Notes: generated by a model not told the origin, from the letters alone. Positions 4,210-60,624 are shown, counted from the first letter of the stretch. The stretch is 64,000 nucleotides of DNA from Candidatus Harrisonbacteria bacterium (GCA_016867415.1 VGJO01000001.1:7823-71822); one strand, 5' to 3'. Numbers and translations are program-made.

Positions 4210-4261
4210 TATATTTATAGTATATCACAAAAAAAATTGTAAAATGATATACTAAAGAAAG

Positions 4262-28578: not shown

Positions 28579-28906
28579 GGCCCTCCAAAGAGGTGGATCT
28601 TTGTTTTCTAAACAGAGGATAGAAATATCGATTGAGTATAATCGACATTTCTATAAAAAGATTTTCAATCTTTTTATCTCCCCTCCACCCTCTTTTTTTC
28701 ATCACCTCTGAATCTCTACACTGCTAAAGAACCCTCACCCCTTCCATGAGTGACCTTTTGGAGAAAAGAAGCATAGTTTCTTGTAGTGATGTATTACCTG
28801 GATTCATCTCCTCAATACATAGCCATAAAAAATTATTTTCAAAAATTGCATGAAAGTTCGCTGGAACTTTCATGCATCTTGAAGGAAAGAGGTGAAGATT
28901 CTAAAA
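28579..28906 (+). repeat. Family-X structured element, copy X3 (~330 nt), immediately upstream of the T4SS-like cluster
   Basis: GGCCCTCCAAAGAGGTGGATCT, hairpin AAAAGATTTTCAATCTTTTT, CCCCTCCACC, TGGAGAAAAGAAGCATAG, hairpin GCATGAAAGTTCGCTGGAACTTTCATGC, TTGAAGGAAAG, TTCTAAAAAA. Confidence 0.5.
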
Positions 28907-28949: not shown

Positions 28950-29762
28950 ATGAAGCCGCCAAAAAAACTTATTTTTGGTATGGGAATTTTTTTAGCTGGT
29001 TTTGTATCCCTTATTATCTTCGGCAACCTCATTTCTCCTCCTCCCTCCACCCTTCCTTCCCAAAAATCCACTCAAGAAAATCATATAAATACTAAAAAAA
29101 TCTTCGAAAATTCATCTTCTTCCACCCCTCTCTATGAATCCCTCTCTGCCCTCAAAGAAGAGGGGACTAGCTCCACCCCCTCCGAGCTTAGCAAAGCCGA
29201 ATCCGCCATTAACCAAAAAATCGCCCAAGTTCTCACTTCCTTAAATCCCGAAGGGCCAATGAAATATGGAGATGAAGAGCTCTTGAAAGTCGAAGACCCT
29301 GAAGTCTTCGTAGATAAATATTTAAAAACCGAATTGAGCAAAATCACCGACATCATCGCTAAAGAATCCTTCCCCATAGTCTCTTTCCCTCAAGAAAAAA
29401 TTATTACAGCCTCCGATTCCTCTACTCTTCTTTCCTCTCTTCTCTTCCTCAAATCCTCGCTTGAAAAACATGAGCCAAAAGACGTGGATATGGAAAACAT
29501 TCTCACCGCCTACCAAAATCTGAAAATTGATTTGAAAAGTCGCCCCCTTTCCGAATCTCTCGTTCCTTTCTACGAACGCGAGCTCTCCCTGATCGAGCAA
29601 GATATAAAAAATATCATCCGCATCCAAAATGCCAAGCAGAGTCCCTTTGAAGCGATTATTGCTTATAAAAAACGAGAAGAAGTATTAAGTGCTTTCATGA
29701 CGCTAAAAAATGACATTAATACATTCGCCAAAAAAAATAAGCTTTCCTTTGAATGGCTATGA
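28950..29762 (+). CDS. Hypothetical membrane-anchored protein (270 aa), first gene of the T4SS-like cluster
   Basis: N-terminal TM helix LIFGMGIFLAGFVSLIIFGNLI, then a Ser/Glu-rich extracellular region. Confidence 0.45.
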   Translation: MKPPKKLIFGMGIFLAGFVSLIIFGNLISPPPSTLPSQKSTQENHINTKKIFENSSSSTPLYESLSALKEEGTSSTPSELSKAESAINQKIAQVLTSLNPEGPMKYGDEELLKVEDPEVFVDKYLKTELSKITDIIAKESFPIVSFPQEKIITASDSSTLLSSLLFLKSSLEKHEPKDVDMENILTAYQNLKIDLKSRPLSESLVPFYERELSLIEQDIKNIIRIQNAKQSPFEAIIAYKKREEVLSAFMTLKNDINTFAKKNKLSFEWL

Positions 29763-31147
29763 CCTCCACCCTTAAAAAAATTATTCTCTCCTTTCTTCTC
29801 TGTGGCCTTATCATTCCATTAGTTGTAAAGCCTCAAAAAGCGCACGCCATCTTCGGCCTCGGCATCGACGCCGTCGTTGAGCAGGTCTTTCGTAGTGCTT
29901 TGGAGGCTGCAAAGCGCCAAGCCCTCGCTCACATTACAAACAATATCATCGACTGGATTGAAAACGGTGGCTCCCCCCGCTTCATCACTAATTGGGAAAG
30001 CTTCTTCTCTGAAATCACTAATTCCATCACCACTCAATTTGTTGGCGAGCTCGGCCTCGGCTTCCTATGTTCTCCCTTTGGTTTCAATATCCAAATAAGC
30101 ATTAATCGCGCGCCCCGCTTTGCCACCTACGCCGCCTGTACTCTTGATACAGTCGTGAGCAACATTGAAAATTTTTATAATGATTTCCGAAATGGCGGCT
30201 GGATCGCCTTTGCTGAATCCTGGCAACCGCAAAATAATTACTATGGCTCCGTCCTTCTTGCTCTCCAGGAGCGTGATCGCCGCATTGCTCAGGAAGGTTT
30301 GACCGGCGCTATCAAATCCCTCGCCAATCAAGGCTTCCTATCCACGGAAAGCTGCCAAATCTTCAACGGCCGCGTGAATTGCCATATTACCACTCCCGGC
30401 CCTCAAGTCGCCGCCCTCTTATCCAAAGCCATGGGCACCGACATTGATTACATTGTTAATTCCCAGGAACTCTCCGTCTACGCCGCCGCCATCGCCGACG
30501 CCTTGATCAATCGCGCTATCCGTGCCGGCGCCGAAGGCATCTTAGGTCTTAAGGTCCAAAGGGCTGATGTCGTTACCGTCCTAAACACTGATCCCTGCTC
30601 CGGCCTCTCTGGTCCCAGCCTCCGTGATTGCCGCAAAGTCCCACCTCTTGAGCTCCAAGGCCTCTCTTTCGTCCAATCCGCATATATCCAAGAGATCGAC
30701 GCTACTCTCGCTCCTTTAAGCGAAGCGGAGTCCGCCTTGATCGACTCGGCCTACAGCACCGAAGAAGTAATAAATGATCTTACAAATCTCACCGCCTGCT
30801 CTACCCGCTACAATTTCACATCCAAAATAAATCTTATGGCGGAATTAATCTCAGAAACCACTAAACTTAATAATCTCCGTGCCGAAATCACTTCCCTCGA
30901 CGGCAACGTCCGCAGTCTCTTAAATGCCCGAGGATTTATCGGGAACGCTTCCCCGGGCGTCGGCGGCGCCGATGCAGTTGCCACCAATTTCTACAACGTC
31001 TCCGGCCTCCTCGATCCTAATCGGGCAATTTCTCTCTTGGAGACGAAGAGCGGCCAGTCTCTCAGCATCATCACTGAAAACAATCAGAAACTTATTAAAA
31101 TCCGAAGCGAGCTCAACGCCTGCCTCGCTTCTAGGCTAGGTCAATAA
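29753..31147 (+). CDS. Secreted cysteine-rich hypothetical protein (464 aa)
   Basis: Signal peptide ...KPQKAHA, 12 Cys residues, and a coiled-coil-like C-terminus. Confidence 0.5.
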   Translation: MAMTSTLKKIILSFLLCGLIIPLVVKPQKAHAIFGLGIDAVVEQVFRSALEAAKRQALAHITNNIIDWIENGGSPRFITNWESFFSEITNSITTQFVGELGLGFLCSPFGFNIQISINRAPRFATYAACTLDTVVSNIENFYNDFRNGGWIAFAESWQPQNNYYGSVLLALQERDRRIAQEGLTGAIKSLANQGFLSTESCQIFNGRVNCHITTPGPQVAALLSKAMGTDIDYIVNSQELSVYAAAIADALINRAIRAGAEGILGLKVQRADVVTVLNTDPCSGLSGPSLRDCRKVPPLELQGLSFVQSAYIQEIDATLAPLSEAESALIDSAYSTEEVINDLTNLTACSTRYNFTSKINLMAELISETTKLNNLRAEITSLDGNVRSLLNARGFIGNASPGVGGADAVATNFYNVSGLLDPNRAISLLETKSGQSLSIITENNQKLIKIRSELNACLASRLGQ

Positions 31148-31149
31148 CC

Positions 31150-33147
31150 ATGAAAACCATCTTCCGTTTTCTAAAAATATTCGCCCCCGCTCTCGCCCTC
31201 CTCCCTAATTTTGCCTTCGCCGCCCCGATGGATTGGTTTGGCAGCCAAATCTTGGCTGGTGGTATGGCTCTTGCGGTTCGCGTTATTCTCTTCATCTACT
31301 ATGTCTTAGGACAGATGGCCTCCGCCATCTTTGCCTTTAGCGCCGCCTTAGTTGAGCTTGCCGTTGACTTGAATTCCCGCATCATTCTCTCTCCTATAGT
31401 CCAAAACGGCTGGCTCATCATGCGTGACTTCACCAATCTCGGGATTGTGATCGCTCTTATCTTCATCGCCTTTGCCACGATGCTCAATATCGAAAATTAT
31501 GACCTGAAAAAAATCATCCCAAAGCTTGTCATCATCGGTATTCTTATTAATTTTTCCCTCTCCATCGCCGGTAGCTTAATCGATGGCACCGGCATCATCA
31601 GCAACTTCTTCGTTTATAAGATCAATGGGGGAGTAACGAGCACCGGCGGCCTAAGCAAGCTCACGGAAAATATTGGAACCGCTTTTCAACTTGAAAGCCT
31701 TCAGAAAACCACAACCCCCGAAGCCATTAAAAACTCTTCTTTTGATGATTTTTCCGCCGGCGCTCTTGGTCTCATCTTAAGCCTCTTTTTCGTCACCGCC
31801 TTCTCACTCTTAGGCGCTCTTGTAATGGGCATGATCGCCGCCCTCTTTATCGTCCGCTACATCTGGCTCATTCTTCTTTTAGTCGTCATGCCCATAGTCT
31901 GGCTTACTTTTGTCGTCCCTACCTGGAACAGGTACTGGAAAATCTGGTGGGAAAATTTTATCGGCCAACTTTTCTACGTACCGATCTCTCTCTTCTTTGT
32001 TTTCATCTCCATCCTTCTTGTCACTAATTATAAAAATGATCCTAATTCTATTATCCAGCTCTCTCAAGGTTTAAATATTAAAAATGAATTTTTCAATAAA
32101 AATTTCCTTATTAGAATTCAAGACTTCGCCGCCTCTGCCGGCCAAATGGTCATGGTTATGGGCCTTATGTATGGTAGTATTATTTTTTCCAAAAGTATTA
32201 GCAGTATGGGATCAGTAGCCATAGTTGGCGCTTTTGATCGAGCCGCTAAGTATGGCTTTAATAAGTCTAAGTCCTTTGCTAAAAATACCGCAATCGGCGC
32301 CGGCCGAGGAATTAAGACCTCCGTCTACAACACCACTGCGAAACCCTTTCTTCAATCCAATCTCGCCCAGTCTCTTGCAAATCGTTCTGCAGGTACGCCC
32401 GGACTCCGTGGCTTAGGCAGCTCCTTAAGCAACGCCATCACAAATCAGAAAGAAGCTGTAAATAGTCAGGTTACCGCCTATCAAAACAGCTATCTCAAAA
32501 ACCTTCCCTCAAGCAGCGCTGTCGCAAGTTATAGTGAAGGCACTGAAATAGAGCGTCTCGCTAAAGTTAGTGAGCTAAGCTCCCGTGAGAAAGGGGACAT
32601 AAGTGCCATCTTCGCCGGCCTAAAAGGCCCCGCCCTTAATAAAAAATTAACCTCCTACGTCGACTCCGCTAAAAATGCCGGAAATAAAGCCGCTGCCACC
32701 GCCCTCACTAAATTCTTCTTGAGAAACAAAACTCTTTTTGATGCAAAAACTCAGACTACTACCATGAATCGCCTTCTCGACCTTAATCGCGACCTAAAGA
32801 CCGACAAAGAGCTCTTAAAAACCAGCCCACATCTTGCAACCGAATTCGGCAAAAATATTGCCGAAGAAGTAAAGAAGATTAAACCGAGAGACATTATTGA
32901 GCTGGAGCGTGACGCCTTCGAAAATAATGAAGTGATCACCGCCCTCGAGAACTCTCAACTCTCCGAACTCGGTAAAAACGCCACTCCCGAAATCAAAGAT
33001 ATTATCCACACCCAGGTAAAAACCCTCCTTGCGAAAAAAGACACCATGACTCCCGAGCTCCAAGCTAAGCTTAATACTCTTGGCAAAATCATGAATACCC
33101 CCGCCTGGACCACTACAATCACAGTAGCTAAAAATCCTTCTCCTTAA
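31150..33147 (+). CDS. VirB6/TrbL-like polytopic membrane protein (665 aa) with a long hydrophilic C-terminal domain
   Basis: Signal/TM then at least 6 further TM helices in the first ~350 aa, followed by an ~300-aa soluble tail. The architecture and its position next to VirB3/VirB4-like genes are typical of the VirB6 family. Confidence 0.45.
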   Translation: MKTIFRFLKIFAPALALLPNFAFAAPMDWFGSQILAGGMALAVRVILFIYYVLGQMASAIFAFSAALVELAVDLNSRIILSPIVQNGWLIMRDFTNLGIVIALIFIAFATMLNIENYDLKKIIPKLVIIGILINFSLSIAGSLIDGTGIISNFFVYKINGGVTSTGGLSKLTENIGTAFQLESLQKTTTPEAIKNSSFDDFSAGALGLILSLFFVTAFSLLGALVMGMIAALFIVRYIWLILLLVVMPIVWLTFVVPTWNRYWKIWWENFIGQLFYVPISLFFVFISILLVTNYKNDPNSIIQLSQGLNIKNEFFNKNFLIRIQDFAASAGQMVMVMGLMYGSIIFSKSISSMGSVAIVGAFDRAAKYGFNKSKSFAKNTAIGAGRGIKTSVYNTTAKPFLQSNLAQSLANRSAGTPGLRGLGSSLSNAITNQKEAVNSQVTAYQNSYLKNLPSSSAVASYSEGTEIERLAKVSELSSREKGDISAIFAGLKGPALNKKLTSYVDSAKNAGNKAAATALTKFFLRNKTLFDAKTQTTTMNRLLDLNRDLKTDKELLKTSPHLATEFGKNIAEEVKKIKPRDIIELERDAFENNEVITALENSQLSELGKNATPEIKDIIHTQVKTLLAKKDTMTPELQAKLNTLGKIMNTPAWTTTITVAKNPSP

Positions 33148-33410
33148 AAACCTAACTCGAACAATAACCCCAGCCAATTCACCGACAAAGGCCTCGGCAT
33201 CTAACCATGAAGGCATTATAAGATCATTAAACGTTTTTCTTTTTTGCATTCTTAAATGTACTGGATTCCGGCTCGGTGGCCGGAATGACAATCCCTTCAA
33301 AACACTATATATGCCTTGTCTTGCCATAGCGTACTCACGAAGGAGGAGAGGATTTTACGATTTTCTTTATAAATAAATTAAAAATATAGCCCGTCGCCAA
33401 GCGCAGGATT

Positions 33411-33589
33411 TTTGAGTCGAGTTTACGATTTATTTCTGAGGACAAGCCCGGGAGCACTACTAAGAAAAAGGTATGTCGAAGGTATGGAGTACTCTCCGTA
33501 CCGGAGATCTCGAGTGCTCTCGAGGTGAAGGACTTACTGGAAGAAAAAATCGCAAAATTGGCCAAAAAGACAAGCGCCCTACAAGCTAA
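33411..33589 (+). repeat. Family-1 structured repeat, copy E (carries a ~60-nt internal insertion)
   Basis: GCGCAGGATTTTTGAGTCGAGTTTACGATTTATTTCTGAGGAC......GGAAGAAAAAATCGCAAAATTGGCCAAAAAGACAAGCGCC. CGATTT and AAATCG are complementary. Confidence 0.55.
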
Positions 33590-33612
33590 TCAAATATAGT
33601 ATAATACTACTA

Positions 33613-34515
33613 ATGAACCTCGCTTTAGCCTTCCTCTCCCTCCCCGAACCCGTAAAAGATTGGTTTGGCTCGCTCGAGCTCGCTGATCGGCTTTCTGATG
33701 TAAACAACTCTCTTGGTCTGGTAGGGGATAACGAATCTCTTTTAAGCAATCTTCTCCTCCGCATCATCACCCTTGATCTCGATATCCGCGACCTTATAAA
33801 CGAGCTTGGTCTTCTCCTGCAAATAAATGAAGGGAAAGCAAAAGAAATTGCCGCCACTCTCATAAAAACCACTCTCACCCCCATAGAAAAAGAATTAATT
33901 CCTTTAGGAATTAATGTGAGGGACGGACTCGCAAACCCCAGCCTTCCCGACTCCAGACTTTCCACTTTTGGTAATACCCCCCGCCCAATAACACCGGAAA
34001 TAAATCCGCTCGCTACCCCTCTTTCTCCTAAATCCGAAGCTTTCTTTAAAAACATTCCTCTTCCGCAATCTCCCCCTTCCTTTAAAGAAGGGGATTCTCC
34101 TTCTAAAGCCTTCTCCAAAACCCCGATTACTCTCCCTCCTATCTTCGAATTTAGCGAGAACAGACAAGAAGAAAAAAAAGAAAAAAATTTCACCCCTCCC
34201 GAAAATCTTCCCTTAGTTCACCAAAAAGAAGCCTCGCCCTTTATTCTCCATGAAGAGAAGGCAGAGCAAACAATAAATATCTCTCAAACCCCTTCGTTTA
34301 CATACACCCCTTCCATCACCGAAATCCCTAAAAAAGAAGAGGTAATAGTCAGCTCTATAGAAGGTTTAGCTCCCGTAATTCCGCCCACCGCCCAAAAAGT
34401 CATTCATTATACCTCCTACAAGACCGAGCTTAATCACGCCTTTTCCTCCATTCCATCCGCTAAAAAAGATCTGGAATCGAAAATAAAAAAACCTCTTTCT
34501 CATTGGTTTATATGA
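33613..34515 (+). CDS. Hypothetical Pro-rich protein (300 aa)
   Basis: ORF in the cluster; no TM helix and no domain recognised. Confidence 0.4.
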   Translation: MNLALAFLSLPEPVKDWFGSLELADRLSDVNNSLGLVGDNESLLSNLLLRIITLDLDIRDLINELGLLLQINEGKAKEIAATLIKTTLTPIEKELIPLGINVRDGLANPSLPDSRLSTFGNTPRPITPEINPLATPLSPKSEAFFKNIPLPQSPPSFKEGDSPSKAFSKTPITLPPIFEFSENRQEEKKEKNFTPPENLPLVHQKEASPFILHEEKAEQTINISQTPSFTYTPSITEIPKKEEVIVSSIEGLAPVIPPTAQKVIHYTSYKTELNHAFSSIPSAKKDLESKIKKPLSHWFI

Positions 34516-34994
34516 ATTTCCAAGTCCCTCAATTCATCGATATTGAAGATCGGATTATTGGTCCGCTCACATTAAAGCAATTCGGCTATCTCGCCATCGC
34601 TTTTCTTCTCTCTTTCTTCTCTTTTTTTATCTTCACTTTTCTTATCTGGGTACTCATCACTCTCCTTGTAGCCGCAATCAGCATTCTCTTCGCCTTCATC
34701 CGCTACAACGAGCGCCCTTTTTCTATTCTTTTCCTCTCCGTCGTTTCATTTGCCTTTCATAAAAAGAAATATCGCAAAAATATTAGCGGAGAAGAGGAGG
34801 GTAAAAAAGAGATTCCTCAAAGCCACCTCGGCGATCTCACTCTCGCCCTAGAGACGAGTACCGCCCCGATGAAAAACGAACGCTCCTTTTTAAAACCCTT
34901 CCTTGATTCCTTACGTGAAGAAAAAGACCGCTACGAAATCCTAAAAAAGATCACTGGAGAAAAAGAGGTCGCAAGAAGAATTGATTACCGATAA
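34503..34994 (+). CDS. PrgI/VirB3-like small membrane protein (163 aa)
   Basis: N-terminal ...VPQFIDIEDRIIGPLTLKQFGYLAIAFLL... followed by two TM helices. Its position directly before the VirB4-like ATPase is as in Gram-positive T4SS. Confidence 0.45.
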   Translation: MVYMNFQVPQFIDIEDRIIGPLTLKQFGYLAIAFLLSFFSFFIFTFLIWVLITLLVAAISILFAFIRYNERPFSILFLSVVSFAFHKKKYRKNISGEEEGKKEIPQSHLGDLTLALETSTAPMKNERSFLKPFLDSLREEKDRYEILKKITGEKEVARRIDYR

Positions 34995-35628
34995 AGTCAT
35001 GGACAATAAAAATACACTCGGATCAGCCTTTGATCTCTTCCCAATCAAAGAAATCAAAAATAACATCATCTTCCTCAATGATGGCGGTCTCCGTAAAATC
35101 CTCCTCGTCTCCGGCGTTAATTTTGAATTAAAGTCTGAACAAGACCAAAATGTCTTAATCTATACTTTCCAAGACTTTCTAAACTCTCTCAAATTCCCGC
35201 TTCAAATCATCATTCATTCCCGAAAATTAAACATTGCTTCATATCTCGAAAATATCCGCGCCGTTGAGAATATGGAAAAAAACAAACTCCTCCAAAGCAT
35301 CATGAAAGATTATGGGAACTTTGTCGGTGATTTTGTGAAAAATAATCCTATAATGGAAAAAACCTTTTTTGTCGTCGTTCCGTATGATTCCTTTTCGCTA
35401 AGTAGCGCTAAGGCTTCTTTAAAAACATTATTTGGTAAAAAAATAACAGCCACCGAAGAGTCTGAGAACGAACACAAAGAAAAGGTAAAAAATATCGGTC
35501 TTCGCATCGATGAAGTGATGGCTGGGTTAAGCCGTATTGGTCTCCGCTCCGTCGCCTTGGAAACTGAAGAGTTAATTGAATTATTTGAAAACTTTTCTCA
35601 TCCAAAAACTATCGAAAATCATTCTTAG
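34981..35628 (+). CDS. VirB4/TraC-like protein, N-terminal domain encoded as a separate ORF (215 aa)
   Basis: ...IKNNIIFLNDGGLRKILLVSGVNFELKSEQDQNVLIYTFQDFLNSL... resembles the VirB4 N-terminal domain. The ORF ends 218 bp before the ATPase ORF. Confidence 0.45.
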   Translation: MITDKVMDNKNTLGSAFDLFPIKEIKNNIIFLNDGGLRKILLVSGVNFELKSEQDQNVLIYTFQDFLNSLKFPLQIIIHSRKLNIASYLENIRAVENMEKNKLLQSIMKDYGNFVGDFVKNNPIMEKTFFVVVPYDSFSLSSAKASLKTLFGKKITATEESENEHKEKVKNIGLRIDEVMAGLSRIGLRSVALETEELIELFENFSHPKTIENHS

Positions 35629-35846
35629 AATTAATCTTAAAAATATTGTCCATCCAAAAGCCCATGAAACGCGAACCAAAAGATAAGTTTGAAATCAAAG
35701 AGAACCCTCGTTCATTAGGAAAGAAATGAATTCTTTTATCTAGGTTTAGTGAGCTGACGATGACAAAATAAAATAATGCTTCAAATAACTTCTGTTAAAA
35801 TACTTTATCTATTTTTTGTGGTATTTTTGAGATGAGTTCTAGATAA

Positions 35847-37538
35847 ATGGAAAATACAAACGAAGTAAAAAATAAAATCACTCCCGAATCTCTTGATATC
35901 TACTCGAGTAAGCTTAAGGTAGGGGATAAATTTGTAAAAATTATTTTCCTCTTAAATTATCCTCGCTACGTCAGCGTAGGCTGGTTTTCACCCATCGTAA
36001 ACGCACCGGAACTCATGGACATCTCCCTACATTTTGATCCGGTCGAAACTGCAGCCGCTCTAAAAAATCTCAAAAAAAAGACAGCGCAGATCGAAGCCCA
36101 GATCTTCGAACGGGAAGAGCAAGGCCTTATTCGCTCGCCCGAGCTGGAAACCGCCCACCACGATATTGAGACTCTTCGCGACGTTCTTCTCCAAGCCACG
36201 GAAAATCTTTTCAAAGTCAGCGCTTATATTGCTCTTTATGCGGACGATGAATCCTCATTAAACCGCCTGGAAAATAAAATCAGCAACATACTCGAAAGCC
36301 GCCTTATTAATGTAAAAACCGCTATCTTCGAACAACTCTCTGGCTTTCGCTCTATTCTCCCTTTAAATAAAAATGAATTAGAAGTTTCTGCTTTTTTCAA
36401 CTCCTCTCCCGCTTCCTCTTTCTTTCCGTTTGTGAGCGCCACTCTCACTTCTAATAAAGGTGTTCTGCAGGGTATTAATCTTGAAAATAATACTCTTATT
36501 ATTTTTGATCGCTTCTCTTTGGAAAATGCTAATAAAGTCATCTTCGCTACCTCCGGCTCCGGTAAATCCTACGCTGCCAAACTCGAAGCCCTCCGTGAGC
36601 TTATGTTTGGCACCGACGTCATCATCATTGATCCGGAAAATGAATATAAAAAACTCGCCGAATCCGTCGGCGGCACCTTTATTAATATTTCCTTAGCTAG
36701 TAAGGAACATGTAAACCCTTTTGATATTCCTATCATCCCCGAAGATGAAAATCCTGCCGACGTTCTAAAGTCTCACATAGTAAATCTCGCGGGCCTAATC
36801 AAGATGATGCTTGGTAAAATCGAGCCCGAAGAAGAAGCCTTAATCGACAGAGCTATCTCCGAGACCTATGCCGCTTTTGATATCTACCCCGGCAGCAACC
36901 TTAAGAATATTAAGACCCCCCTCCTTTCCGACCTCGAATCCGTCCTGAGAAATCTTGAAGGTGGAGAAAAAATCGCCAGCCGCCTCTACCGGTTTACGAA
37001 CGGCAGCTACGCCGGTTTTAGCAATAAAGAAACAAATATTAATATTAATAATCGGCTCGTCGTCTTCTCTATCCGAGATCTTGAGGAAGAACTCCGTCCG
37101 ATTGCTATGTATGTGATCTTAAACTACATCTGGAATCTTATTAAAAGCGAAAAGAAGAAACGTATCCTAATCGTTGATGAAGCCTGGTGGATGATGAAAT
37201 ATCCTGACGGTGCTTCCTTCCTCTTTGGTCTTGTAAAGCGCGCCCGCAAGTATTATCTAGGAGTCACCACCATCACCCAAGATGTTGAAGATTTCCTCCT
37301 CTCCTCATACGGCCGACCAATCCTGACCAACTCCTCTCAAAAGCTTCTGTTAAAGCAGCAGCCCGCTATGATTGACACTCTGGTTAAGACCTTCAATCTC
37401 ACCGAGAATGAAAAAATTCTCCTCCTCGACGCCGAGGTGGGGGAGGGCCTTTTTTTTGCCGGCTTAAAGCATGTGGTAATCAAAATTGTCGCCTCCGACC
37501 TTGAAGATGAAATAGTAAGCACTAAACCTGCCTCATGA
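35847..37538 (+). CDS. VirB4/TrbE/CagE-family T4SS ATPase, C-terminal ATPase portion (563 aa)
   Basis: Walker A FATSGSGKSYAAK, Walker B ILIVDEAWWMM, and ...GVTTITQDVEDF..., the conserved VirB4 C-terminal motif. Confidence 0.8.
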   Translation: MENTNEVKNKITPESLDIYSSKLKVGDKFVKIIFLLNYPRYVSVGWFSPIVNAPELMDISLHFDPVETAAALKNLKKKTAQIEAQIFEREEQGLIRSPELETAHHDIETLRDVLLQATENLFKVSAYIALYADDESSLNRLENKISNILESRLINVKTAIFEQLSGFRSILPLNKNELEVSAFFNSSPASSFFPFVSATLTSNKGVLQGINLENNTLIIFDRFSLENANKVIFATSGSGKSYAAKLEALRELMFGTDVIIIDPENEYKKLAESVGGTFINISLASKEHVNPFDIPIIPEDENPADVLKSHIVNLAGLIKMMLGKIEPEEEALIDRAISETYAAFDIYPGSNLKNIKTPLLSDLESVLRNLEGGEKIASRLYRFTNGSYAGFSNKETNININNRLVVFSIRDLEEELRPIAMYVILNYIWNLIKSEKKKRILIVDEAWWMMKYPDGASFLFGLVKRARKYYLGVTTITQDVEDFLLSSYGRPILTNSSQKLLLKQQPAMIDTLVKTFNLTENEKILLLDAEVGEGLFFAGLKHVVIKIVASDLEDEIVSTKPAS

Positions 37539-37828
37539 AGAAAATATTCTTAGCCGAAGCCGCCCCTCTCATTATCTTTTCTGTTATTATCGATCTTATT
37601 GAGCTCACCGCCGTTGGTGGCCTCTTTACCAGTATTCCCTCAATTATCCTATTCATTATTATTCGCGAGTATCTTAATATAAAAGGAGCAAAGAAAAATT
37701 ACCTCTTCTGGCTATCCTTCTTTGACTATTTCCCAATCATAAACATCCTCCCTTTAAAAACCACAGCACTTGTGATTTCCATAACCTTCCATAATCATGC
37801 GGCTGCTAAATTTAACTCTGCTTCCTAA
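37535..37828 (+). CDS. Small hydrophobic membrane protein (97 aa)
   Basis: Three predicted TM segments; start overlaps the upstream stop by 4 nt. Confidence 0.4.
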   Translation: MKKIFLAEAAPLIIFSVIIDLIELTAVGGLFTSIPSIILFIIIREYLNIKGAKKNYLFWLSFFDYFPIINILPLKTTALVISITFHNHAAAKFNSAS

Positions 37829-38453
37829 ATCACTCCTTTTTTTCACTATTCTTTCTTCCATTTTTTTGTTGCCAAAAAATAGCCTGGCCACTCCCTCCCT
37901 TTTTATTAATTGGAAAGCCTTAACCCTTTCCTCTGATTCCTATTCCGGTAAAAATCTTCCCACTCCCGGCTCTCAAGTAGAGCTTGGAATCTTTGCTTTA
38001 GATGGCAATCAACTAACAAATCTAAAAACCGCCGATGTTTTCTGGTACCAAAATGAAAATCTTATTAAGAAAGGCTCAGGCCTTTCTCATATCACCCTCA
38101 CTCTTGATGAGTCCGGCACCCCAACTACCATCAGAGTGAAAGTAAAAAAGGACGACACTATTATCGAAGGACTTACTATCATAAACCCGGTCTCATCCAA
38201 TCTCTACATTGAAGTGAAAAAAACTATCTCTAAAAGCTCCGTCTTTTTTGCTCGCCCTCTCTTCTTTAATGTTAATAATCTAGAAAATCTTTCCTTTGAA
38301 TGGGAAGCGGGCGGAAAGAAAGTGGTCGGACCCAGTTCTCTTACTCTAAGCGTCCCTCCGGAAATTGATTCTATTCTCTTAAAAAGCACGGTAAAAAATA
38401 AAACTCGCAAAGTGGAGCAAGTAAGTGAAACTATTTCCCTTAAAAATGGCTAA
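37797..38453 (+). CDS. Secreted hypothetical protein (218 aa)
   Basis: Signal peptide ...NSLATPS; beta-rich composition. Confidence 0.45.
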   Translation: MRLLNLTLLPKSLLFFTILSSIFLLPKNSLATPSLFINWKALTLSSDSYSGKNLPTPGSQVELGIFALDGNQLTNLKTADVFWYQNENLIKKGSGLSHITLTLDESGTPTTIRVKVKKDDTIIEGLTIINPVSSNLYIEVKKTISKSSVFFARPLFFNVNNLENLSFEWEAGGKKVVGPSSLTLSVPPEIDSILLKSTVKNKTRKVEQVSETISLKNG

Positions 38454-39243
38454 ACATTATCTTTATATACTTCTTTTTTGTCTTTCCTTTGCCCTAATGA
38501 ATCTAGGAGGGGTAGTCTTAGCCCAGACTAAAGCCTGCGGCCCTAATGGCTTAAACTACACGCTCTGTGTTCCTCTACCAGGTCAAAAATCCCCCACTGT
38601 ATCTGGTCTTGATCAATACATCGCCGCCATCTTCACCCTTGCCCTCTCTATTGCCGGCCTCCTCGCCTTCATGCGCCTCCTCTATGGTGGCATCATCTAT
38701 ATTATCTCTTCGAGTAGTGTGGTTAAAAAAGACTATGCCAGAGAGGTAATGAACAAATCCCTCTTGGGTCTCCTTCTTTTATTTGCCGGAACTCTCATTC
38801 TTTATTTTATTAATCCCGATCTTCTCTACGTCGGCCGTATTTTCTCCGACGCTAATCGTATTGGTATCACTGGTCTCGATGATCTAAAAGTAAAACGCAT
38901 TGAAGAATTTAAAGCCACTAATGAAGCGGCAAAAATACAAGAAGAGCAAGATCGGGCTGAATGGATGTTTCGCTACCAAAAAGAGACAGAGTCTCTTAGT
39001 CGGGAAAAAGAATCCTTAAGCGACAATCTTTCATATCTTATGAATAGCTATGGGCAAAATATAAGTAGTAGGGGGAGCGCCGCCGAACGTACCCGCCTCG
39101 AAAGCGAAATTAAGGCTCGCAACACCGAGCTCCTTAAGGTTCACTCCACTCTTCAAGGCATCGAGCAGGAATATCGTCTCTATAATAATAAAAAAGATTC
39201 TATCATTCCCATTGAATTCGACATTTCTAATATTCGGCCATAA
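38425..39243 (+). CDS. VirB2/TrbC-like pilin candidate with a C-terminal coiled-coil extension (272 aa)
   Basis: Signal peptide ...VLAQT, then TM1 (AAIFTLALSIAGLLAFMRLLYGGIIYI) - loop - TM2 (LLGLLLLFAGTLILYFI), then a heptad-like tail. Confidence 0.45.
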   Translation: MKLFPLKMAKHYLYILLFCLSFALMNLGGVVLAQTKACGPNGLNYTLCVPLPGQKSPTVSGLDQYIAAIFTLALSIAGLLAFMRLLYGGIIYIISSSSVVKKDYAREVMNKSLLGLLLLFAGTLILYFINPDLLYVGRIFSDANRIGITGLDDLKVKRIEEFKATNEAAKIQEEQDRAEWMFRYQKETESLSREKESLSDNLSYLMNSYGQNISSRGSAAERTRLESEIKARNTELLKVHSTLQGIEQEYRLYNNKKDSIIPIEFDISNIRP

Positions 39244-39245
39244 CC

Positions 39246-40361
39246 ATGAAAAAATATCTTATTAGTATCGGTTTCATAATAATCTTCCTTGGACTTCTTT
39301 ATTCTGCTTATCTTCTCACTAAAGAAACCTCAGAAAACACTTCAAAAGAAGACGTGGCAGTGATAGTGGAAGAAAAAAAAGAAGCTATTCCTACCGAAAA
39401 TATAATAAAACTTAAAGCTTCACTTCTCTCTGAGAGTCCTGTGGTCTGGTACTCTCCTTTCTCTTTTACCTCTACCCCCGGAACTACTACCATCGACACT
39501 CTCTCTCCCTCCGCCACTGATCAAAATATTCTTTCTTTATCCCGATCTCTACCAATATCCGACTTTACCTTAAGCCCTTCTGGCCGCTTCTCTCTTATTG
39601 AGCTGGGCAACAGCCCAATCCACACCCTGACCGTCTTCGACCGAAAAACAAACTCTCTTATCTCTCTTGGCGCGACCCCAATAAGCGCCGCCTTCATTCC
39701 CGGCTCCGATACCGAAGTTTTCGTCCTAGAAAAAAATATTGGAATAAAAAGAGTAAACCTCGAAAAAAAGACTGAAAAAATTCTCTTAAGCCTCGATCTT
39801 GTGGAAGCCGATATTACTCCGCTCTCCGTCTCCGAAATCCTTGTTTCTGAAAAAGCCGATCCTGACACAAAAGAAAAAACTTTTCTCGTAAACACAGTAA
39901 ATCAGACTGTCACCCTTATTAACGAAGCTCCTGTAAGCCTCTATAAAAATATCAACGCCTTCTATCTCGAGTATAAAGAGGCCGACAACACTCCCGAAAT
40001 CATTCTTAAAGATTCCATCACTAAAAAAGAAATTATCAACTTTAAAAACGCCCTAGGCGGCGAGAATAATTTCACCCTCCCCTCAAAATGTGCTGGTAAA
40101 GACGCGCTCGTCATCTGTGCCTTCCCTCAAGAAGTAATTAATAAAAATAATTTTAGCAACCGCTACACTCGTGGCGAAGAATACCCTAGAGACGATCTCT
40201 ACTCCTTCGAGATTCGCAAAGGAGAGGGGATAGTGAAACGCCACCTTATCTTCTCCTCCACCGACTCCGAATCCTACCAATTCAAAAATCTCTTCATCCT
40301 CAACTCCACTCTCTACTTCATTAACCACCAAACCGACCTCCTCCACTCCCTCCCCCTCTAA
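39246..40361 (+). CDS. Hypothetical membrane-anchored or lipoprotein-like protein (371 aa), last gene of the cluster
   Basis: N-terminal TM helix, Ser/Thr-rich linker, and a beta-rich C-terminal domain. Confidence 0.45.
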   Translation: MKKYLISIGFIIIFLGLLYSAYLLTKETSENTSKEDVAVIVEEKKEAIPTENIIKLKASLLSESPVVWYSPFSFTSTPGTTTIDTLSPSATDQNILSLSRSLPISDFTLSPSGRFSLIELGNSPIHTLTVFDRKTNSLISLGATPISAAFIPGSDTEVFVLEKNIGIKRVNLEKKTEKILLSLDLVEADITPLSVSEILVSEKADPDTKEKTFLVNTVNQTVTLINEAPVSLYKNINAFYLEYKEADNTPEIILKDSITKKEIINFKNALGGENNFTLPSKCAGKDALVICAFPQEVINKNNFSNRYTRGEEYPRDDLYSFEIRKGEGIVKRHLIFSSTDSESYQFKNLFILNSTLYFINHQTDLLHSLPL

Positions 40362-40438: not shown

Positions 40439-40867
40439 CTAAATAGGCTTAATAACCACTCTTCTATTCTTACCCTCTCCTTCACTTTCCGTCTTCACAT
40501 CCGGCCGTATTGAAAGCTCCTCATGCACAATCCTCCTCTCATATGCATTCATCACCGGCAACTTCACTTCTCCTTTAGAAAACACTGCTTTCTTCGCCGC
40601 CGCTTTCGCAAGATCTGAAATAATCCGCTCCCGCTCTTTCCGATAATTATTCACATCAATCCGGATCGGCTCCCGATTTTCCTTAGTGGCCTTAAGTCGT
40701 TCTAAAAGCAATAAAGATCCCACAATCTCCGAAAGCCACCGCTTCAACCATTCTCCTTCATAAAGAAAGATGAGAAGCCTATTTTCTTCCAGATCAAAAT
40801 CAATCGAAAAATCGCTAAACCCCGCTTGTTGGAATAGATTCTGATAAAAGCCCTTGATCTTGTCCAT
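40439..40867 (-). CDS. Jag-like RNA-binding protein (KH/R3H domains)
   Basis: C-terminal R3H ...ERRIVHEELSIRPDVKTESEGEG.NRRVVIKP. It sits downstream of yidC as in the conserved yidC-jag pair. Confidence 0.75.
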   Translation of the reverse strand: MDKIKGFYQNLFQQAGFSDFSIDFDLEENRLLIFLYEGEWLKRWLSEIVGSLLLLERLKATKENREPIRIDVNNYRKERERIISDLAKAAAKKAVFSKGEVKLPVMNAYERRIVHEELSIRPDVKTESEGEGKNRRVVIKPI

Positions 40868-41546
40868 AAATTATTCTCGTAATATACACCTGTTGGACTA
40901 AAGAAAAAAGGGTGCTCGTAAGCCAATAAAGGCCCACTGCCGAAGGTAAGGTTCCTAAGATAAGTAAGGTAAGAATTGGTCCAATAACCATCATTTTCTT
41001 CGCTATATTCCGAGCTTGTGCACCCTCCTTGGTCCCAGTATCTTTTGGTAATGACACCATTCCTAAGAAGTATTGAGCCGCCGCGGTAATAAGAGTCAAC
41101 GCATAACTCCGTTCTGAAAGATTAAGAATAGATAAAAAATTAGTTATGATTATTTCTGGCCGGCTTATAAACGAGTATAAATTTTGATCCAGAGTCGCTG
41201 GAGTAACTCCCGCAAGAAATACATTATAAATAGCGATAAAAATAGGAATCTGAATAAGAATAATAAGAAAACCAGAAAAAGGGTTAATTTTATATTCTTT
41301 ATAAAGAGCCATGATTTTTTCCGTCTGCACCTGGCGATCATCTTTATGTTTTTCCTGAATCTCTTTAATCATCGGCTGAATCTTAGTTATTAAAACCTGA
41401 TTCTTCATACTCTTATAAAAGAGAGGGTAAAGAATCAGACGAATAAGGATAGTGATAAGAATAATTGCGAAGCCAAAATCACCTAAAAGATTATTAAGTA
41501 CTACAAGCGCATTAAATATTGGTTGAGTTAAAAGTTGATTAAACAT
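40815..41546 (-). CDS. yidC: Membrane protein insertase YidC (short form)
   Basis: ...ILIRLILYPLFYKSMKNQV...MALYKEYKINPFSGFL.ILIQIPIFIAIY... is the YidC/Oxa1 core. Confidence 0.85.
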   Translation of the reverse strand: MFNQLLTQPIFNALVVLNNLLGDFGFAIILITILIRLILYPLFYKSMKNQVLITKIQPMIKEIQEKHKDDRQVQTEKIMALYKEYKINPFSGFLIILIQIPIFIAIYNVFLAGVTPATLDQNLYSFISRPEIIITNFLSILNLSERSYALTLITAAAQYFLGMVSLPKDTGTKEGAQARNIAKKMMVIGPILTLLILGTLPSAVGLYWLTSTLFSLVQQVYITRIIYGQDQGLLSESIPTSGV

Positions 41547-41850
41547 AAAAGAGACTTGATAAGTCTTTAATTATTTCCTCTTGATTTCCAGTTTTCTGGA
41601 TAATAATAAAGTATTTTCCTGAAGGAAGCGATAGGAATTTTTCTTGAATAATCCTATAAATAAGTCGCTTTAAAATATTCCGATCAACCGCCTTTAAAAC
41701 CACTTTTTTCGCCACCGACACTGCAAATCTCGCTCGACCTTCTTTTTCAGGATACTTTTTTAACAAGAAAAAAGACGCCTTCGAATATTTTCTCTCAAAT
41801 CCTCGTAAAGGAAGAGATTGAATTGGAAAGCGCCTTTCTTTTGAAAGCAT
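41539..41850 (-). CDS. rnpA: Ribonuclease P protein component
   Basis: ...RFAVSVAKKVVLKAVDRNILKRLIYRII... is the RnpA signature, and the rpmH-rnpA-yidC order is conserved. Confidence 0.8.
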   Translation of the reverse strand: MLSKERRFPIQSLPLRGFERKYSKASFFLLKKYPEKEGRARFAVSVAKKVVLKAVDRNILKRLIYRIIQEKFLSLPSGKYFIIIQKTGNQEEIIKDLSSLFYV

Positions 41851-41853
41851 TTA

Positions 41854-41988
41854 TTAAACAGTAAGCTTTGCTCGACCCTTCGCCCGCCGTCGTGCTAAAA
41901 CCTTCTTACCACTCGCACTCTTTGAACGTTTTAAAAATCCGTGAGTCCGTGCTCGCTTCTTCTTTTTTGGTTGATATGTCGTTGACAT
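41854..41988 (-). CDS. rpmH: 50S ribosomal protein L34
   Basis: Translated by hand: [44 protein letters not shown]. It is not in the ORF track because it is under 60 aa. Confidence 0.9.
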
Positions 41989-42015: not shown

Positions 42016-42024
42016 TTTTCCACA
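42016..42024 (+). promoter_or_regulatory. DnaA-box-like 9-mer TTTTCCACA in the rpmH-dnaA intergenic region
   Basis: One mismatch from the TTATCCACA consensus. Confidence 0.4.
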
Positions 42025-42090: not shown

Positions 42091-43449
42091 ATGAACGAAA
42101 CCCAACTCTGGGAAAAGGCACTGAGCGATCTCGAACTAGAAATTCCTCGGCCGAACTTTCTTACGTGGTTAAAGAATAGCCAAATTGTAGAAATGACTGA
42201 TGGAGGAGTAAAAGTTGGACTCGCCAGTCGCTTTGCTCAAAGTTGGGTAGAAAAACATTATCCAATTATTATTTTAAAAGCTCTTCGGAATTTAAATGAT
42301 TCTATTAAGAGGGTAGAGTTTACTGTCATCACTAAGAATATAAATCGTTCCCAACTCCCAAAGGTAGAAACTCGCCTCGATGATTACCAACAAACTTTTG
42401 AGCCCGCCACCGATCCCGAAACTTCTCTTAATCCTAAATACACCCTAAAGTCCTATGCTGTTGGTTCTTCAAATGAAATGGCTTTTGCCGCTATAAATGC
42501 AATTATCGAAAACGTCGGAAAAAAATATAACCCCCTCCTTATCTATGGTGGTGTTGGTGTTGGTAAGACTCACCTTATTCAGGCAGCCGGTAATGAAATA
42601 AAAAATCGCTATGGCACTAAATGTAAGATTCGCTATGTTCACGCTGAAAAATTCATTAATGATGTAGTCCATGCGATGCGTACTCAAAATATGCATACAG
42701 TTAAAAGCCGTTACCGGGATATTAATGTTCTTATAATCGACGATATTCAATTCATCGCTGGTAAGGCAAAAACAGAAGAAGAATTCTTCTATACCTTCAA
42801 CACCCTTAAAGAAGATAATAAACAAATAATTATTTCCTCCGATCGACCTCCTAAATCCATGCCTAATCTCGAAGAACGCCTTCGTTCTCGTCTCGATTCT
42901 GGTATGATTATTGATATTTCCCCACCAGATTATGAGCTCCGCATTGCTGTTTTAAAAAATAAATTAGAAGAAAAAAACCTCTCTCTCGATCCAGTTATTA
43001 TTAGTGAAATTGCTACTAAAGCCGAAAAAAGCCTCCGAGATCTCGAAGGAATAGTAAATAAAATTCAGTTCTATAAAGATCATAAAAAAGCAGAGATTAC
43101 CTCTAAAGTTATTAATGAAATTATCGGAAATAGTTCTCTTCAAAAAATTAATAAACTCGCCAATCCTAATGAAATAATTAAAATTGTCTCTAATTATTTT
43201 GAAATCACCACCCAAGACATTATTGGTCGATCCCGAAAACAAGAAATAGTCGAGCCTAGGCAAATCGCTATTTTTCTCTTACGAGATATTCTTAATATGT
43301 CTTATCCCGCTATAGCCGGAAAATTAGGAAAACGCGATCACACGACCGCTATCTATGCCTACGACAAAATTAAAAAAGAAATTGAACAAAATCAGTCCCT
43401 TAACCAAAAAATAATCTCTATTAAAGATCTTATAGAATCCTCTTGTTAA
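42091..43449 (+). CDS. dnaA: Chromosomal replication initiator DnaA
   Basis: AAA+ Walker A GGVGVGKTHL, Walker B LIIDDIQF, and the C-terminal DNA-binding signature ...IAGKLGKRDHTTAIYAYDKI. Confidence 0.95.
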   Translation: MNETQLWEKALSDLELEIPRPNFLTWLKNSQIVEMTDGGVKVGLASRFAQSWVEKHYPIIILKALRNLNDSIKRVEFTVITKNINRSQLPKVETRLDDYQQTFEPATDPETSLNPKYTLKSYAVGSSNEMAFAAINAIIENVGKKYNPLLIYGGVGVGKTHLIQAAGNEIKNRYGTKCKIRYVHAEKFINDVVHAMRTQNMHTVKSRYRDINVLIIDDIQFIAGKAKTEEEFFYTFNTLKEDNKQIIISSDRPPKSMPNLEERLRSRLDSGMIIDISPPDYELRIAVLKNKLEEKNLSLDPVIISEIATKAEKSLRDLEGIVNKIQFYKDHKKAEITSKVINEIIGNSSLQKINKLANPNEIIKIVSNYFEITTQDIIGRSRKQEIVEPRQIAIFLLRDILNMSYPAIAGKLGKRDHTTAIYAYDKIKKEIEQNQSLNQKIISIKDLIESSC

Positions 43450-43780: not shown

Positions 43781-44890
43781 ATGAAAATTATTGTTTTAAA
43801 AAATAATCTTAAAGAAGCCTTATCGGTTATTGAACATGGCGTAGGAGATAATAATGCTCTCCCTATTCTTAAAAACGTTCTTATCCAAACAGAAAATGAA
43901 AAAATAGTCCTCCGGACCACTAATCTCGAATTAGCCATTAAAAAAACTCTTTCCGGAAAAATAATTGAACCAGGAGCTATTACCGTCCCTCTTTCTGTTT
44001 TATATTCAATTATTAGCAATCTTTCTGATGAAAAAGTTTCTCTTGATACGAAAGATACCACTCTCCTTATTAGTACAGAAAAATATCAAGCTAAAATTCA
44101 AGGAGTAAAAGATGATGAATTTCCGGTAATTCCCAAAATAGAGACAGAAAGTGTTCTTATTATCGCTTCTCAGGTTCTTAAGAAAGCTATTAGTAAGGTA
44201 TTTTATGCCGCTGAACTTTCCGAGATTCGCCCTGAGATTGGTGGTGTTTTATTTGATTTTCTTACCTCGAATCTTAAATTAGTTGCTACTGATAGTTTTC
44301 GCCTCGCGGAAATGATTGTAAAAAAAGAATTATTTTCTTTTTCCGGTACTTCGGGCTTTAAAGCTATTATCCCTTTAAAAACCGTTCAAGAAATTATCCG
44401 AATTTTTCCCGAAGATGAGATGATAAAAATTTCTTTTGATCCAACTCAGGTATTTCTTCAATCTTCTTCTATTGAACTTATTTCTCGTCTCTTAGAAGGA
44501 GAATATCCAGATTATGAGCAAATAATTCCCAAGACATTTATAACAGAAGTTATTCTTAAAAAAGAAGATTTAGGAAATGCGGTGAAGGTAGTAAGTACGT
44601 TTAGTGGTAAGAATAATGATGTAAATCTTTCATATAGTGATGCTGGTGATATGTCTTTATACTCCTTAAATCAGGTAATTGGTGAAAATAAGTATTCTTT
44701 TTCCGTTTCTGGAAAAGGAGAATCATTTGAAAATATTGCTTATAATTGGCGATTTATTCAAGATGGCCTACGTGCTCTTGAAGGCCCCACTATTTTTTTT
44801 GGTGTGAATGGTTCTGATCGTCCTTCGCTTATAAAAAGCACTGAAAGTGATATTTTTTTTTCATATATCGTAATGCCAATAAAAAAATAA
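43781..44890 (+). CDS. dnaN: DNA polymerase III beta sliding clamp
   Basis: 369 aa, three-domain clamp pattern, conserved position after dnaA. Confidence 0.9.
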   Translation: MKIIVLKNNLKEALSVIEHGVGDNNALPILKNVLIQTENEKIVLRTTNLELAIKKTLSGKIIEPGAITVPLSVLYSIISNLSDEKVSLDTKDTTLLISTEKYQAKIQGVKDDEFPVIPKIETESVLIIASQVLKKAISKVFYAAELSEIRPEIGGVLFDFLTSNLKLVATDSFRLAEMIVKKELFSFSGTSGFKAIIPLKTVQEIIRIFPEDEMIKISFDPTQVFLQSSSIELISRLLEGEYPDYEQIIPKTFITEVILKKEDLGNAVKVVSTFSGKNNDVNLSYSDAGDMSLYSLNQVIGENKYSFSVSGKGESFENIAYNWRFIQDGLRALEGPTIFFGVNGSDRPSLIKSTESDIFFSYIVMPIKK

Positions 44891-60544: not shown

Positions 60545-60624
60545 AGCAGGAGGTATACATAATCAGTATGTTGACGAGCAAACGAAAGCTTAGACATGCG
60601 TCAGAGGAAAAAAAGACAAGCGCC
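60545..60624 (+). repeat. Family-1 variant (3' half), copy H
   Basis: GTATGTTGACGAGCAAACGAAAGCTT...GAGGAAAAAAAGACAAGCGCC shares its 3' half with copy G. It overlaps the 5' extension of the RNase J ORF, so the real rnj start is probably MKLRFIGG at ~60653. Confidence 0.45.

Follow-up and report, generated by a model that had tools for sequence, protein, structure and literature searches.

Patescibacteria account for a large share of bacterial diversity, and how they obtain what their hosts supply is an open question. Here we describe a type IV secretion system (T4SS) gene cluster, located at positions 28950-40361 of a 64,000-nucleotide stretch of DNA from Candidatus Harrisonbacteria bacterium (GCA_016867415.1, VGJO01000001.1:7823-71822); this whole stretch is called the window below, and the genome is of the Patescibacteria, Paceibacteria-type. 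Several systems closely related to this cluster have been described in recent years. McLean 2020 reported a region with VirB4, VirB6 and VirB2 together with an array of secreted proteins in Saccharibacteria and other candidate phyla radiation (CPR) members. By transposon sequencing, the T4SS genes SEML1_0006-0019 and the pilins of S. epibionticum were found to be essential for epibiotic growth, with no coupling protein or relaxase recognisable in this organism (Wang 2023, Cell 186:4803; PMC10633639), and in the same Southlakia epibionticum, the only relative amenable to genetics, the deletion of comEC abolishes transformation and is tolerated (PMC12857230). A survey of 3,035 Patescibacteria genomes (Quinonero-Coronel 2025, Microb Genom 11:001409; PMC12102498) detected VirB4 in 2,417 of them, where the VirB4 proteins are monophyletic, nested in the MPF_FATA class, and occur with TrsD, PrgI/VirB3, VirB6 and arrays of VirB2. 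The same survey counted only 109 relaxases, placed the homologues of the type IV coupling protein (T4CP) mostly far from virB4, described the proximity of the systems to dnaA, dnaN, rnpA, ksgA and rpmH in Paceibacteria and Microgenomatia, and proposed the import of DNA or other macromolecules. Moreover, these systems are listed as a new T4SS type in a 2025 FEMS review, and a 2026 preprint connects both PNPase and VirB4 with the use of host RNA as food.

Compared with these systems, the window cluster shows no difference in kind and is an instance of them: it has VirB4, a TrsD-like protein that corresponds to the VirB4 N-terminus, PrgI/VirB3, a putative VirB6 and VirB2-like pilins plus a separate pilin array, it is chromosomal and lies beside dnaA, dnaN, rnpA, rpmH and ksgA, and relaxase and T4CP are absent nearby. 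We consider it very likely that the region is a chromosomal 'Patescibacteria-type' T4SS of a Paceibacteria-class (CPR) bacterium, with a vertically inherited core module that stems from MPF_FATA conjugation systems and no longer has a link to DNA mobilisation. The T4SS cluster as such, the lack of a relaxase and the location next to dnaA had been reported in papers of 2020-2025, and both the observation and the main interpretation of the initial annotation, which was made from the sequence alone, reproduce this published work. The cluster consists of eleven open reading frames (ORFs), here numbered g1 to g11, all on the + strand and, as that annotation had it, co-directional, with products of 270, 464, 665, 300, 163, 215, 563, 97, 218, 272 and 371 amino acids. 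The junctions between the genes are mostly overlapping or 2 nt long, the exceptions being 465 bp after g3 and 218 bp after g6.

The genes g5, g6 and g7 encode the VirB3 and VirB4 components. The small membrane protein encoded by g5 (34503-34994, +) is PrgI/VirB3-like, as had been recognised at the outset: it matches the Pfam family PrgI at 38 bits, above the cut-off of 27, it maps to positions 20-115 of NF045975, the model of the VirB3-VirB4 fusion in the integrative conjugative elements (ICEs) of mycoplasmas, and it was found in 73 of the 80 related loci that were fetched for comparison. The VirB4 ATPase encoded by g7 (35847-37538, +) carries the P-loop domain and the remaining part of the N-terminal domain. 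It reaches 378 bits with NCBIfam conju_CD1110, against a curated cut-off of 325, over profile positions 184-732 of 752, while in Pfam it matches P-loop_TraG (84 bits), AAA_10 and CagE_TrbE_VirB (21.9 bits, from profile position 62). Walker A (SGSGKS) is found at residue 236, Walker B (ILIVDEAW) at residue 440 and the GVTTITQD motif at residue 472. The VirB4-like ATPase claimed in the initial annotation is thereby borne out in its motifs and its family, but not as a single gene, since its N-terminal part is encoded separately by g6.

In fact g6 (34981-35628, +), which has the precomputed Pfam label PF26593 TraC-like, matches several VirB4 models in NCBIfam, namely VirB4_plasma at positions 98-237 (1.4e-9), TIGR00929 VirB4_CagE at positions 11-184 (5e-9), conju_CD1110 at positions 13-141 and, weakly, TrsD (2.2e-4). 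Moreover, g6 and g7 form one in-frame ORF of 768-790 amino acids in 5 of 74 relatives (loci L003, L005, L006, L024 and L027), being separate in the other 69, and in the two fused proteins that were tested, those of L005 and L024, the Pfam family TraC_F_IV spans the junction at 29-35 bits (cut-off 28.1). From these matches and the fused homologues it follows that the TrsD-like gene encodes the N-terminal part of VirB4, detached from the rest, and the eleven genes thus make up ten functional units. The order PrgI, VirB4 N-terminus and VirB4 C-terminus is the same as in fused VirB3-VirB4 proteins. JGI and Logan assemblies made independently for this organism show the split with its 218-bp spacer as well, and it is no assembly artefact. 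Whether the genes are split or fused differs between loci whose identity to the query is about 60-65% throughout, and the spacer itself, which is 218 bp long here and has stops in all frames, is variable as well: in many relatives the two genes abut, and in some the gap reaches several hundred bp. When a fused VirB4 homologue was compared with the PDB, it matched the Thermoanaerobacter VirB4 (4AG5) at 2.5e-40 and TrwK at 2e-3, and the closest plasmid relatives of VirB4 all belong to Firmicutes or Actinobacteria, at 30-37% identity.

The VirB6-like and pilin components were assigned by way of their orthologues. The g3 product (31150-33147, +) has about eight hydrophobic segments followed by a long hydrophilic C-terminal extension, an architecture of the 'extended VirB6' type. 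The window copy has no direct match in Pfam or NCBIfam, and its family profile gave only coiled-coil or low-complexity noise against PDB sequences; among its orthologues a TrbL/VirB6 match was found in 4 of 45 (best E 1.3e-7) and TrbL_4 in 2 of 45, and in the family alignment N134-F135-S136 and R236 are invariant. The VirB6-like polytopic protein of the initial annotation therefore stands as a reasonable if indirect call, made through the orthologues and the eight or so transmembrane (TM) segments, and not through the window copy. The case of g10 (38425-39243, +) is similar: it encodes a VirB2-like pilin-domain protein with a signal peptide, in which the pilin domain comprises two hydrophobic helices at residues ~59-129 and is followed by an atypical, charged C-terminal tail of ~140 amino acids. 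In the window copy T4SS_pilin scores 19 bits, below the cut-off of 26.6, so that the pilin claimed inside the cluster is sub-threshold by itself, but all four orthologues tested pass at 31.6-38.9 bits.

A second set of pilin genes sits 25 kb from the cluster, where three VirB2/TrbC-like paralogues had been noted at 3185-4846. Two of them pass T4SS_pilin, at 3859-4209 on the - strand (44.2 bits) and at 4262-4846 on the + strand (34.0 bits), while the third, at 3185-3538 on the - strand, is sub-threshold at 18.5 bits. The gene at 3859-4209 also weakly matches the model of the mycoplasma ICE pilin-like protein Mbov_0395 (24 bits, cut-off 40). Separate arrays of VirB2-like pilins are known in Patescibacteria (PMC12102498). 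As a side observation, in the segment 1941-4846 the gene of an XerC/D-like recombinase (1941-2843) has tRNA-Leu (2888-2969) directly after it, and the array of three pilin genes comes next; the GC content of the segment, 0.39, is below that of its flanks. This layout resembles an integration hotspot, but the recombinase looks to be of the housekeeping type.

The conservation of the cluster across genomes is extensive. VirB4 relatives occur in more than 585 species genomes, and the best 80, which are 54-65% identical and whose loci were fetched for the synteny counts, all come from metagenome-assembled genomes of Patescibacteria (Paceibacterota, Wolfe-, Jorgensen-, Kaiser-, Campbell- and Nomurabacteria, and others). 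Upstream of the cluster ksgA is found in 40 of the 80 loci, often with uvrD before it (26/80), and downstream, in the same orientations, yidC is found in 50, jag in 26 and dnaA in 46, followed by dnaN and PBP, where the cases of missing dnaA are mostly contig ends. Thus a block of ksgA, the eleven genes, jag, yidC, dnaA and dnaN recurs in dozens of related species, and of 17 long loci that were inspected, 15 agree in the slot-by-slot architecture, in terms of protein size and TM number. Six of the genes (g1, g4, g8, g9, g10 and g11) are poorly conserved and were recovered by iterated profile searches at fixed offsets from virB4. Relative to the virB4 stop, the g1 family lies at a median of -8.9 kb (40 loci) and the g4 family at a median of -4.0 kb (53 loci), while the g8 family starts at a median of 4 nt past the stop (64 loci); the families of g9, g10 and g11 lie at +0.5 kb (67 loci), +1.5 kb (63 loci) and +2.3 kb (53 loci) from virB4. 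The conserved flanks and the fixed offsets of all eleven families from virB4 point to a vertically inherited module of the core genome and not to a mobile element. The check proposed in the initial annotation, synteny next to oriC, thus came out in favour of a fixed position, with the same flanks in dozens of Patescibacteria species. What the annotation had called an unusual neighbourhood turned out to be the opposite, as both the synteny and PMC12102498 make the position adjacent to the origin the rule for the lineage.

A few loci depart from this pattern. In seven of them, mostly Kaiserbacteria-type (L033, L037, L047, L053, L058, L060 and L068), ksgA and g1 to g3 were undetected by tblastn, and two of the Kaiserbacteria-type loci (L047 and L060) have different genes upstream of PrgI and keep PrgI through g11 and yidC through dnaA. 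The module may consist of two sub-blocks.

That the cluster is an ICE, whole or decayed, which by chance came to lie beside the origin, has a few points in its favour: its VirB4 passes conju_CD1110, a model named for the ATPases of ICEs and conjugative systems, outside the CPR its nearest relatives belong to conjugative plasmids and ICEs found in Firmicutes and Actinobacteria, and a gene for a tyrosine recombinase is in the window. However, when all ORFs of at least 110 amino acids that were judged real genes, 53 across the whole 64 kb, were scanned with Pfam or NCBIfam, none matched a relaxase family and none encoded a VirD4/TcpA coupling protein, in agreement with what the initial annotation had reported. 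The only recombinase, at 1941-2843, aligns end-to-end with XerC and XerD (241 and 226 bits) and is 26 kb distant; the earlier statement that no integrase is visible accordingly holds for integrases of the element type and leaves out this gene of housekeeping type. The entire block and its housekeeping flanks are conserved over many species and candidate phyla of Paceibacteria, the GC content of the cluster (0.38-0.50) is inside the range of the remaining window (0.30-0.50), and in the published phylogeny the nearest VirB4 relative is in the same class for 99.3% (PMC12102498). We thus regard an ICE as very improbable, and membership in this category was rejected, with relaxase, T4CP and element-type integrase missing from the window and identical housekeeping genes on the flanks.

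The cluster was also compared with systems outside the Patescibacteria. The conjugative systems of the MPF_FATA class, such as pCF10 Prg/Pcf, pGO1 Trs and the CTn/CD1110 ICEs of C. difficile, share with the window cluster a VirB4 that passes CD1110, PrgI, a TrsD-like protein as in pGO1, and the absence of outer-membrane core parts. They differ from the window cluster in that the latter has no relaxase, T4CP, oriT or element-type integrase nearby and has a fixed chromosomal position; furthermore, VirB2-like pilins are present here and normally missing from Gram-positive systems, whereas a PrgB-type adhesin and a recognisable VirB8-like (PrgL) or VirB1-like (PrgK) gene are missing from the cluster. 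The ICEs of mycoplasmas are alike in that g5, g6 and g7 fall in order on positions 20-115, 98-237 and 292-893 of the Mbov_0397 model, in that one distal pilin weakly resembles Mbov_0395, and in that both lineages are wall-poor or monoderm and have reduced genomes. Nevertheless, the scores are far under the equivalog cut-offs (300 vs 590 bits, and 24 vs 40 bits), the VirB3-like protein is fused to VirB4 in mycoplasmas where the window has three separate genes, and the mycoplasma system is on a mobile ICE.

Besides the recognised T4SS components, the cluster encodes six lineage-specific membrane or secreted proteins (g1, g2, g4, g8, g9 and g11), and the claim of several signal-peptide or membrane-anchored proteins and of one Cys-rich secreted protein was confirmed. 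The last one is g2 (29753-31147, +), which has a Sec signal, 9 Cys of which 4 are conserved, a conserved N-domain at about residues 40-265 and a variable C-domain. At E<=1e-3 its family counts 6,088 cluster representatives in a library of 1.84 billion proteins. The C-domain is swapped between species: here it is a helical bundle, and Ig-like, F5/8-C (discoidin), Fn3, PKD or CHB_HEX_C (chitobiase-C) domains are found at the C-terminus of a few relatives. The structure prediction suggested for this product was informative in part: in the AlphaFold2 (AF2) model the mean pLDDT (predicted local distance difference test) is 73, and the C-terminal residues 300-464 form a confident helical bundle, mostly at 87 or more and up to 98, but a Foldseek search of the model against the PDB returned generic helical bundles only (E>=0.03), with no significant fold match. 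The conserved N-domain, for which there is no Pfam model, has a pLDDT of 34-76 (mean per 10-residue block).

The other accessory genes can be described more briefly. The first gene of the module, g1 (28950-29762, +), encodes a bitopic membrane protein with a TM segment at about residues 5-31 and a predicted helical ectodomain; it has no Pfam, NCBIfam or informative PDB match, its AF2 model is unusable at a pLDDT of 42.7, and it is fused to g2 in L019 and L009. A VirB8-like identity was considered for g1, of which 10 homologues were retrieved; its predicted secondary structure is all-helical, which does not suggest an NTF2-like fold and may speak against that identity. The g4 product (33613-34515, +) is without TM segments and has a conserved N-terminal domain of ~100 amino acids followed by a Pro-rich low-complexity region, with no PDB, Pfam or NCBIfam match; the family profiles of g1, g2 and g4 gave only coiled-coil or low-complexity noise against PDB sequences. 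A small membrane protein with 2-3 TM segments and no Pfam or NCBIfam match is encoded by g8 (37535-37828, +). The g9 product (37797-38453, +) is all-beta, with a signal peptide or anchor; it has no match in Pfam or NCBIfam, and its family profile matches the Ig-like domains of phage T4 Hoc (3shs) among PDB sequences at E 1.6e-5. The last gene, g11 (39246-40361, +), encodes an N-terminally anchored, TolB-like beta-propeller, whose family profile matches TolB 4r40 at E 5.6e-13 plus 11 more TolB sequences, and in which K281 and the conserved Cys pair C282 and C291 are invariant. A kinship of g11 with g2 was also tried and dropped: hhalign of the two families gave a probability of 1.6%, that is no relationship, and the matches of the g11 profile on two g2 homologues thus probably involve the variable C-termini of g2. 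Altogether g2, g9 and g11 are likely extracytoplasmic, and g1 is probably so too; such a location of g2, g9 and g11 would fit a role at the cell surface or in host contact.

From these components a working scheme can be drawn for the Patescibacteria-type T4SS. VirB3, VirB4 and VirB6 would form a translocon in the cytoplasmic membrane and a motor for the dislocation of pilins; the VirB2-like pilins, exported by Sec, are predicted to be assembled by this translocon into a tube or pilus; g2, g9 and g11 might decorate or anchor the tube at the contact site with the host cell, on which these epibionts rely; and macromolecules would move between epibiont and host, either host nucleic acid and other material inwards or effectors outwards, with no DNA conjugation. 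Several points weigh against the reading of the cluster as such a system or limit it. The window copies of g3 and g10 are below the cut-offs of their families and take their assignment from orthologues; a VirB8-like or VirB1-like component was not identified in the cluster; the monoderm (MPF_FATA) affinity of VirB4 is suggested by best matches and not by a phylogeny of our own; and both the function and the pilus of Paceibacteria T4SSs are predicted. In addition, the genome outside the window could encode a VirD4-like coupling protein or a relaxase that is not recognised as such. In fact VirD4-like genes are found elsewhere in most Patescibacteria genomes, with 5,713 of them in 2,918 genomes (PMC12102498).

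As to cargo and direction, the import of host nucleic acid and the export of effectors seem about equally plausible. It is possible, though we would not call it probable, that the T4SS feeds the cell with host RNA, DNA or other cytoplasmic material, which would enter by way of a pilus-like tube that pierces the host envelope. This hypothesis is the one favoured in PMC12102498 and would agree with the literature, in which Patescibacteria generally lack nucleotide synthesis; uptake of host RNA and tubular structures at the interface were seen in a cultured relative, and VirB4 and PNPase are each monophyletic across the phylum (2026 preprint), while PNPase, an NYN-domain protein and an RNase J-like protein are all in the window. 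However, no known T4SS carries RNA inward, the identity of the tubes as T4SS pili and of RNA as T4SS cargo is putative, and the co-location is weak evidence because nucleic-acid enzymes are in any case abundant near the origin in small genomes. The export of effectors or toxins into or onto the host for the release of nutrients, in the manner of Xanthomonas or of Streptococcus suis 89K, was suggested by Wang 2023 and McLean 2020, and we hold it as tentatively as the import. The missing relaxase fits protein secretion, and among the products of the cluster are several secreted or surface proteins with C-termini that differ from species to species; yet there is no recognisable effector, secretion signal or coupling protein here, and the secreted proteins of the cluster carry Sec signals and thus need no T4SS to leave the cytoplasm. 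A more specific version of the import idea is a feeding organelle, in which a VirB2 tube, built by the split VirB4, VirB3 and VirB6 and tipped or anchored by g2, g9 and g11, pierces the host envelope and imports host RNA or DNA as a source of nucleotides and energy, with the variable C-terminus of g2 and the divergent pilin paralogues setting the host range. While the import was already hypothesised in the literature, the roles given to g2, g9 and g11 are our own suggestion, and in this full form the model is speculative and rather unlikely to hold.

The initial annotation had favoured a chromosomally fixed apparatus for DNA uptake or cell contact, analogous to the ComB system of Helicobacter. 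The fixed position and the non-ICE nature hold, given the conserved flanks, but ComB-like DNA uptake is not established. Such a competence machine, in which the T4SS, DprA and the type IV pilus ATPase would jointly serve DNA uptake for natural transformation, was also raised in PMC11665869 and PMC12102498. It can draw on DprA (21795-22679) and the PilB-type ATPase (48963-50714), both present in the window as had been noted, on ComB as a precedent for DNA import by a T4SS, and on a weak match to CedB of archaeal DNA import (42 bits). H. pylori ComB is indeed similar as a chromosomal, non-conjugative T4SS with VirB2/3/4/6-like parts and without relaxase or coupling protein. It differs in that ComB7-10 cross the outer membrane and DNA is handed to ComEC; these monoderm bacteria have no outer membrane, and ComB7/8/9/10-type parts were not detected among the cluster proteins with Pfam or NCBIfam. 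DprA and PilB are 6-9 kb or more away from the cluster and widespread in Patescibacteria regardless of the T4SS, and the CedB score is far under its equivalog cut-off of 700 bits, on which grounds membership in the Ced system was rejected. More specifically, transformation of S. epibionticum needs ComEC, with type IV pili implicated, and the comEC deletion is viable without transformation whereas the T4SS is essential; this implies that the essential role of the Saccharibacteria T4SS is independent of ComEC and other than ComEC-coupled transformation. A ComB-like machine is thus quite improbable for the window cluster.

Turning to the surroundings of the Patescibacteria-type T4SS, the cluster ends beside the origin module as the initial annotation described it (with a gap of ~80 bp), all genes of which are present. 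The convergent jag gene (40439-40867, -), recognised by R3H/Jag, lies 77 bp past the stop of g11 and is followed by yidC (40815-41546, -), rnpA (41539-41850, -), rpmH (41854-41988, -), dnaA (42091-43449, +) and additionally dnaN (43781-44890, +), which were identified from their translations. DnaA-box-like TTTTCCACA is found at 42016, 43637 and 43710, and the GC content drops to 0.30 around the dnaA-dnaN spacer, with a shift in the level of GC skew at ~43 kb. To the left of this point the skew is -0.2 to -0.3 throughout, regardless of gene strand, and to the right it is only ~0 or -0.1 and never positive, being asymmetric around the putative origin. We also observed that uvrD, ksgA and the cluster are transcribed toward the presumed origin, which is head-on to replication if oriC is at dnaA, and that all related loci keep the same orientation; in the part of the source available to us, the published 'gene dosage' argument makes no mention of it.

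The rest of the window is housekeeping in content, with genes for the topology, replication and repair of DNA (GyrA, TopA, Pol I, Fpg), for recombination and competence (UvrD, RuvABC and the DprA mentioned above), for RNA metabolism (PNPase, the NYN-domain protein, the RNase J-like protein, KsgA), and for envelope and pili (PBP1, a MurE-like protein and the PilB-type ATPase). Among these, the NYN-domain protein, PNPase (13906-16035) and the RNase J-like beta-CASP protein share the window with the T4SS (13104-16035 and 60596-62002), a co-location for which the housekeeping character of this region may be reason enough. A LysM and M23 peptidase (24207-25160, -), encoded 4 kb upstream of the cluster, was weighed as a counterpart of VirB1; its gene was found in 2 fetched loci only, most of the fetched loci ending before that position, and M23/LysM proteins were counted among the VirB1-like candidates associated with virB4 in Paceibacteria by the 2025 survey.

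Some non-coding features of the cluster were recorded as well. The 465-bp gap between g3 and g4 (33148-33612) contains an imperfect 18-nt direct repeat (33346-33363 and 33414-33431). In the 712-bp non-coding gap before the cluster, 74 bp 5' of g1, there is an inverted repeat at 28847-28876 (TGCATGAAAGTTC GCTG GAACTTTCATGCA) with perfect 13-bp arms and 4 nt between them, which could be an operator or a terminator; no second copy is present in the window and none in related loci. A scan of the whole window with Rfam returned two tRNAs only, leaving the three non-coding gaps of the cluster without a match, and scans for promoter and terminator consensus gave no excess over chance (26 vs 21.7 expected, and 16 vs 14.7 expected).

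To sum up, the window holds a clean and complete example of the Paceibacteria system, with all eleven slots in conserved families, and no new kind of system. What our analysis adds is the recognition of g6 as a VirB4 fragment by means of fused homologues, the TolB-like nature of g11 and the Ig-like nature of g9, the size of the g2 family and the conservation of the eleven slots; the eleven conserved slots, TolB-like g11, Ig-like g9 and the minority fusion of TrsD and virB4 do not appear in those parts of Quinonero-Coronel 2025 and Wang 2023 that were available to us. Patescibacteria keep few conserved envelope machines, of which this T4SS is one, and it is the leading candidate for the interface with the host. 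The three extracellular proteins, which are unannotated in the published surveys, may be useful targets once co-cultures of Paceibacteria become genetically tractable.

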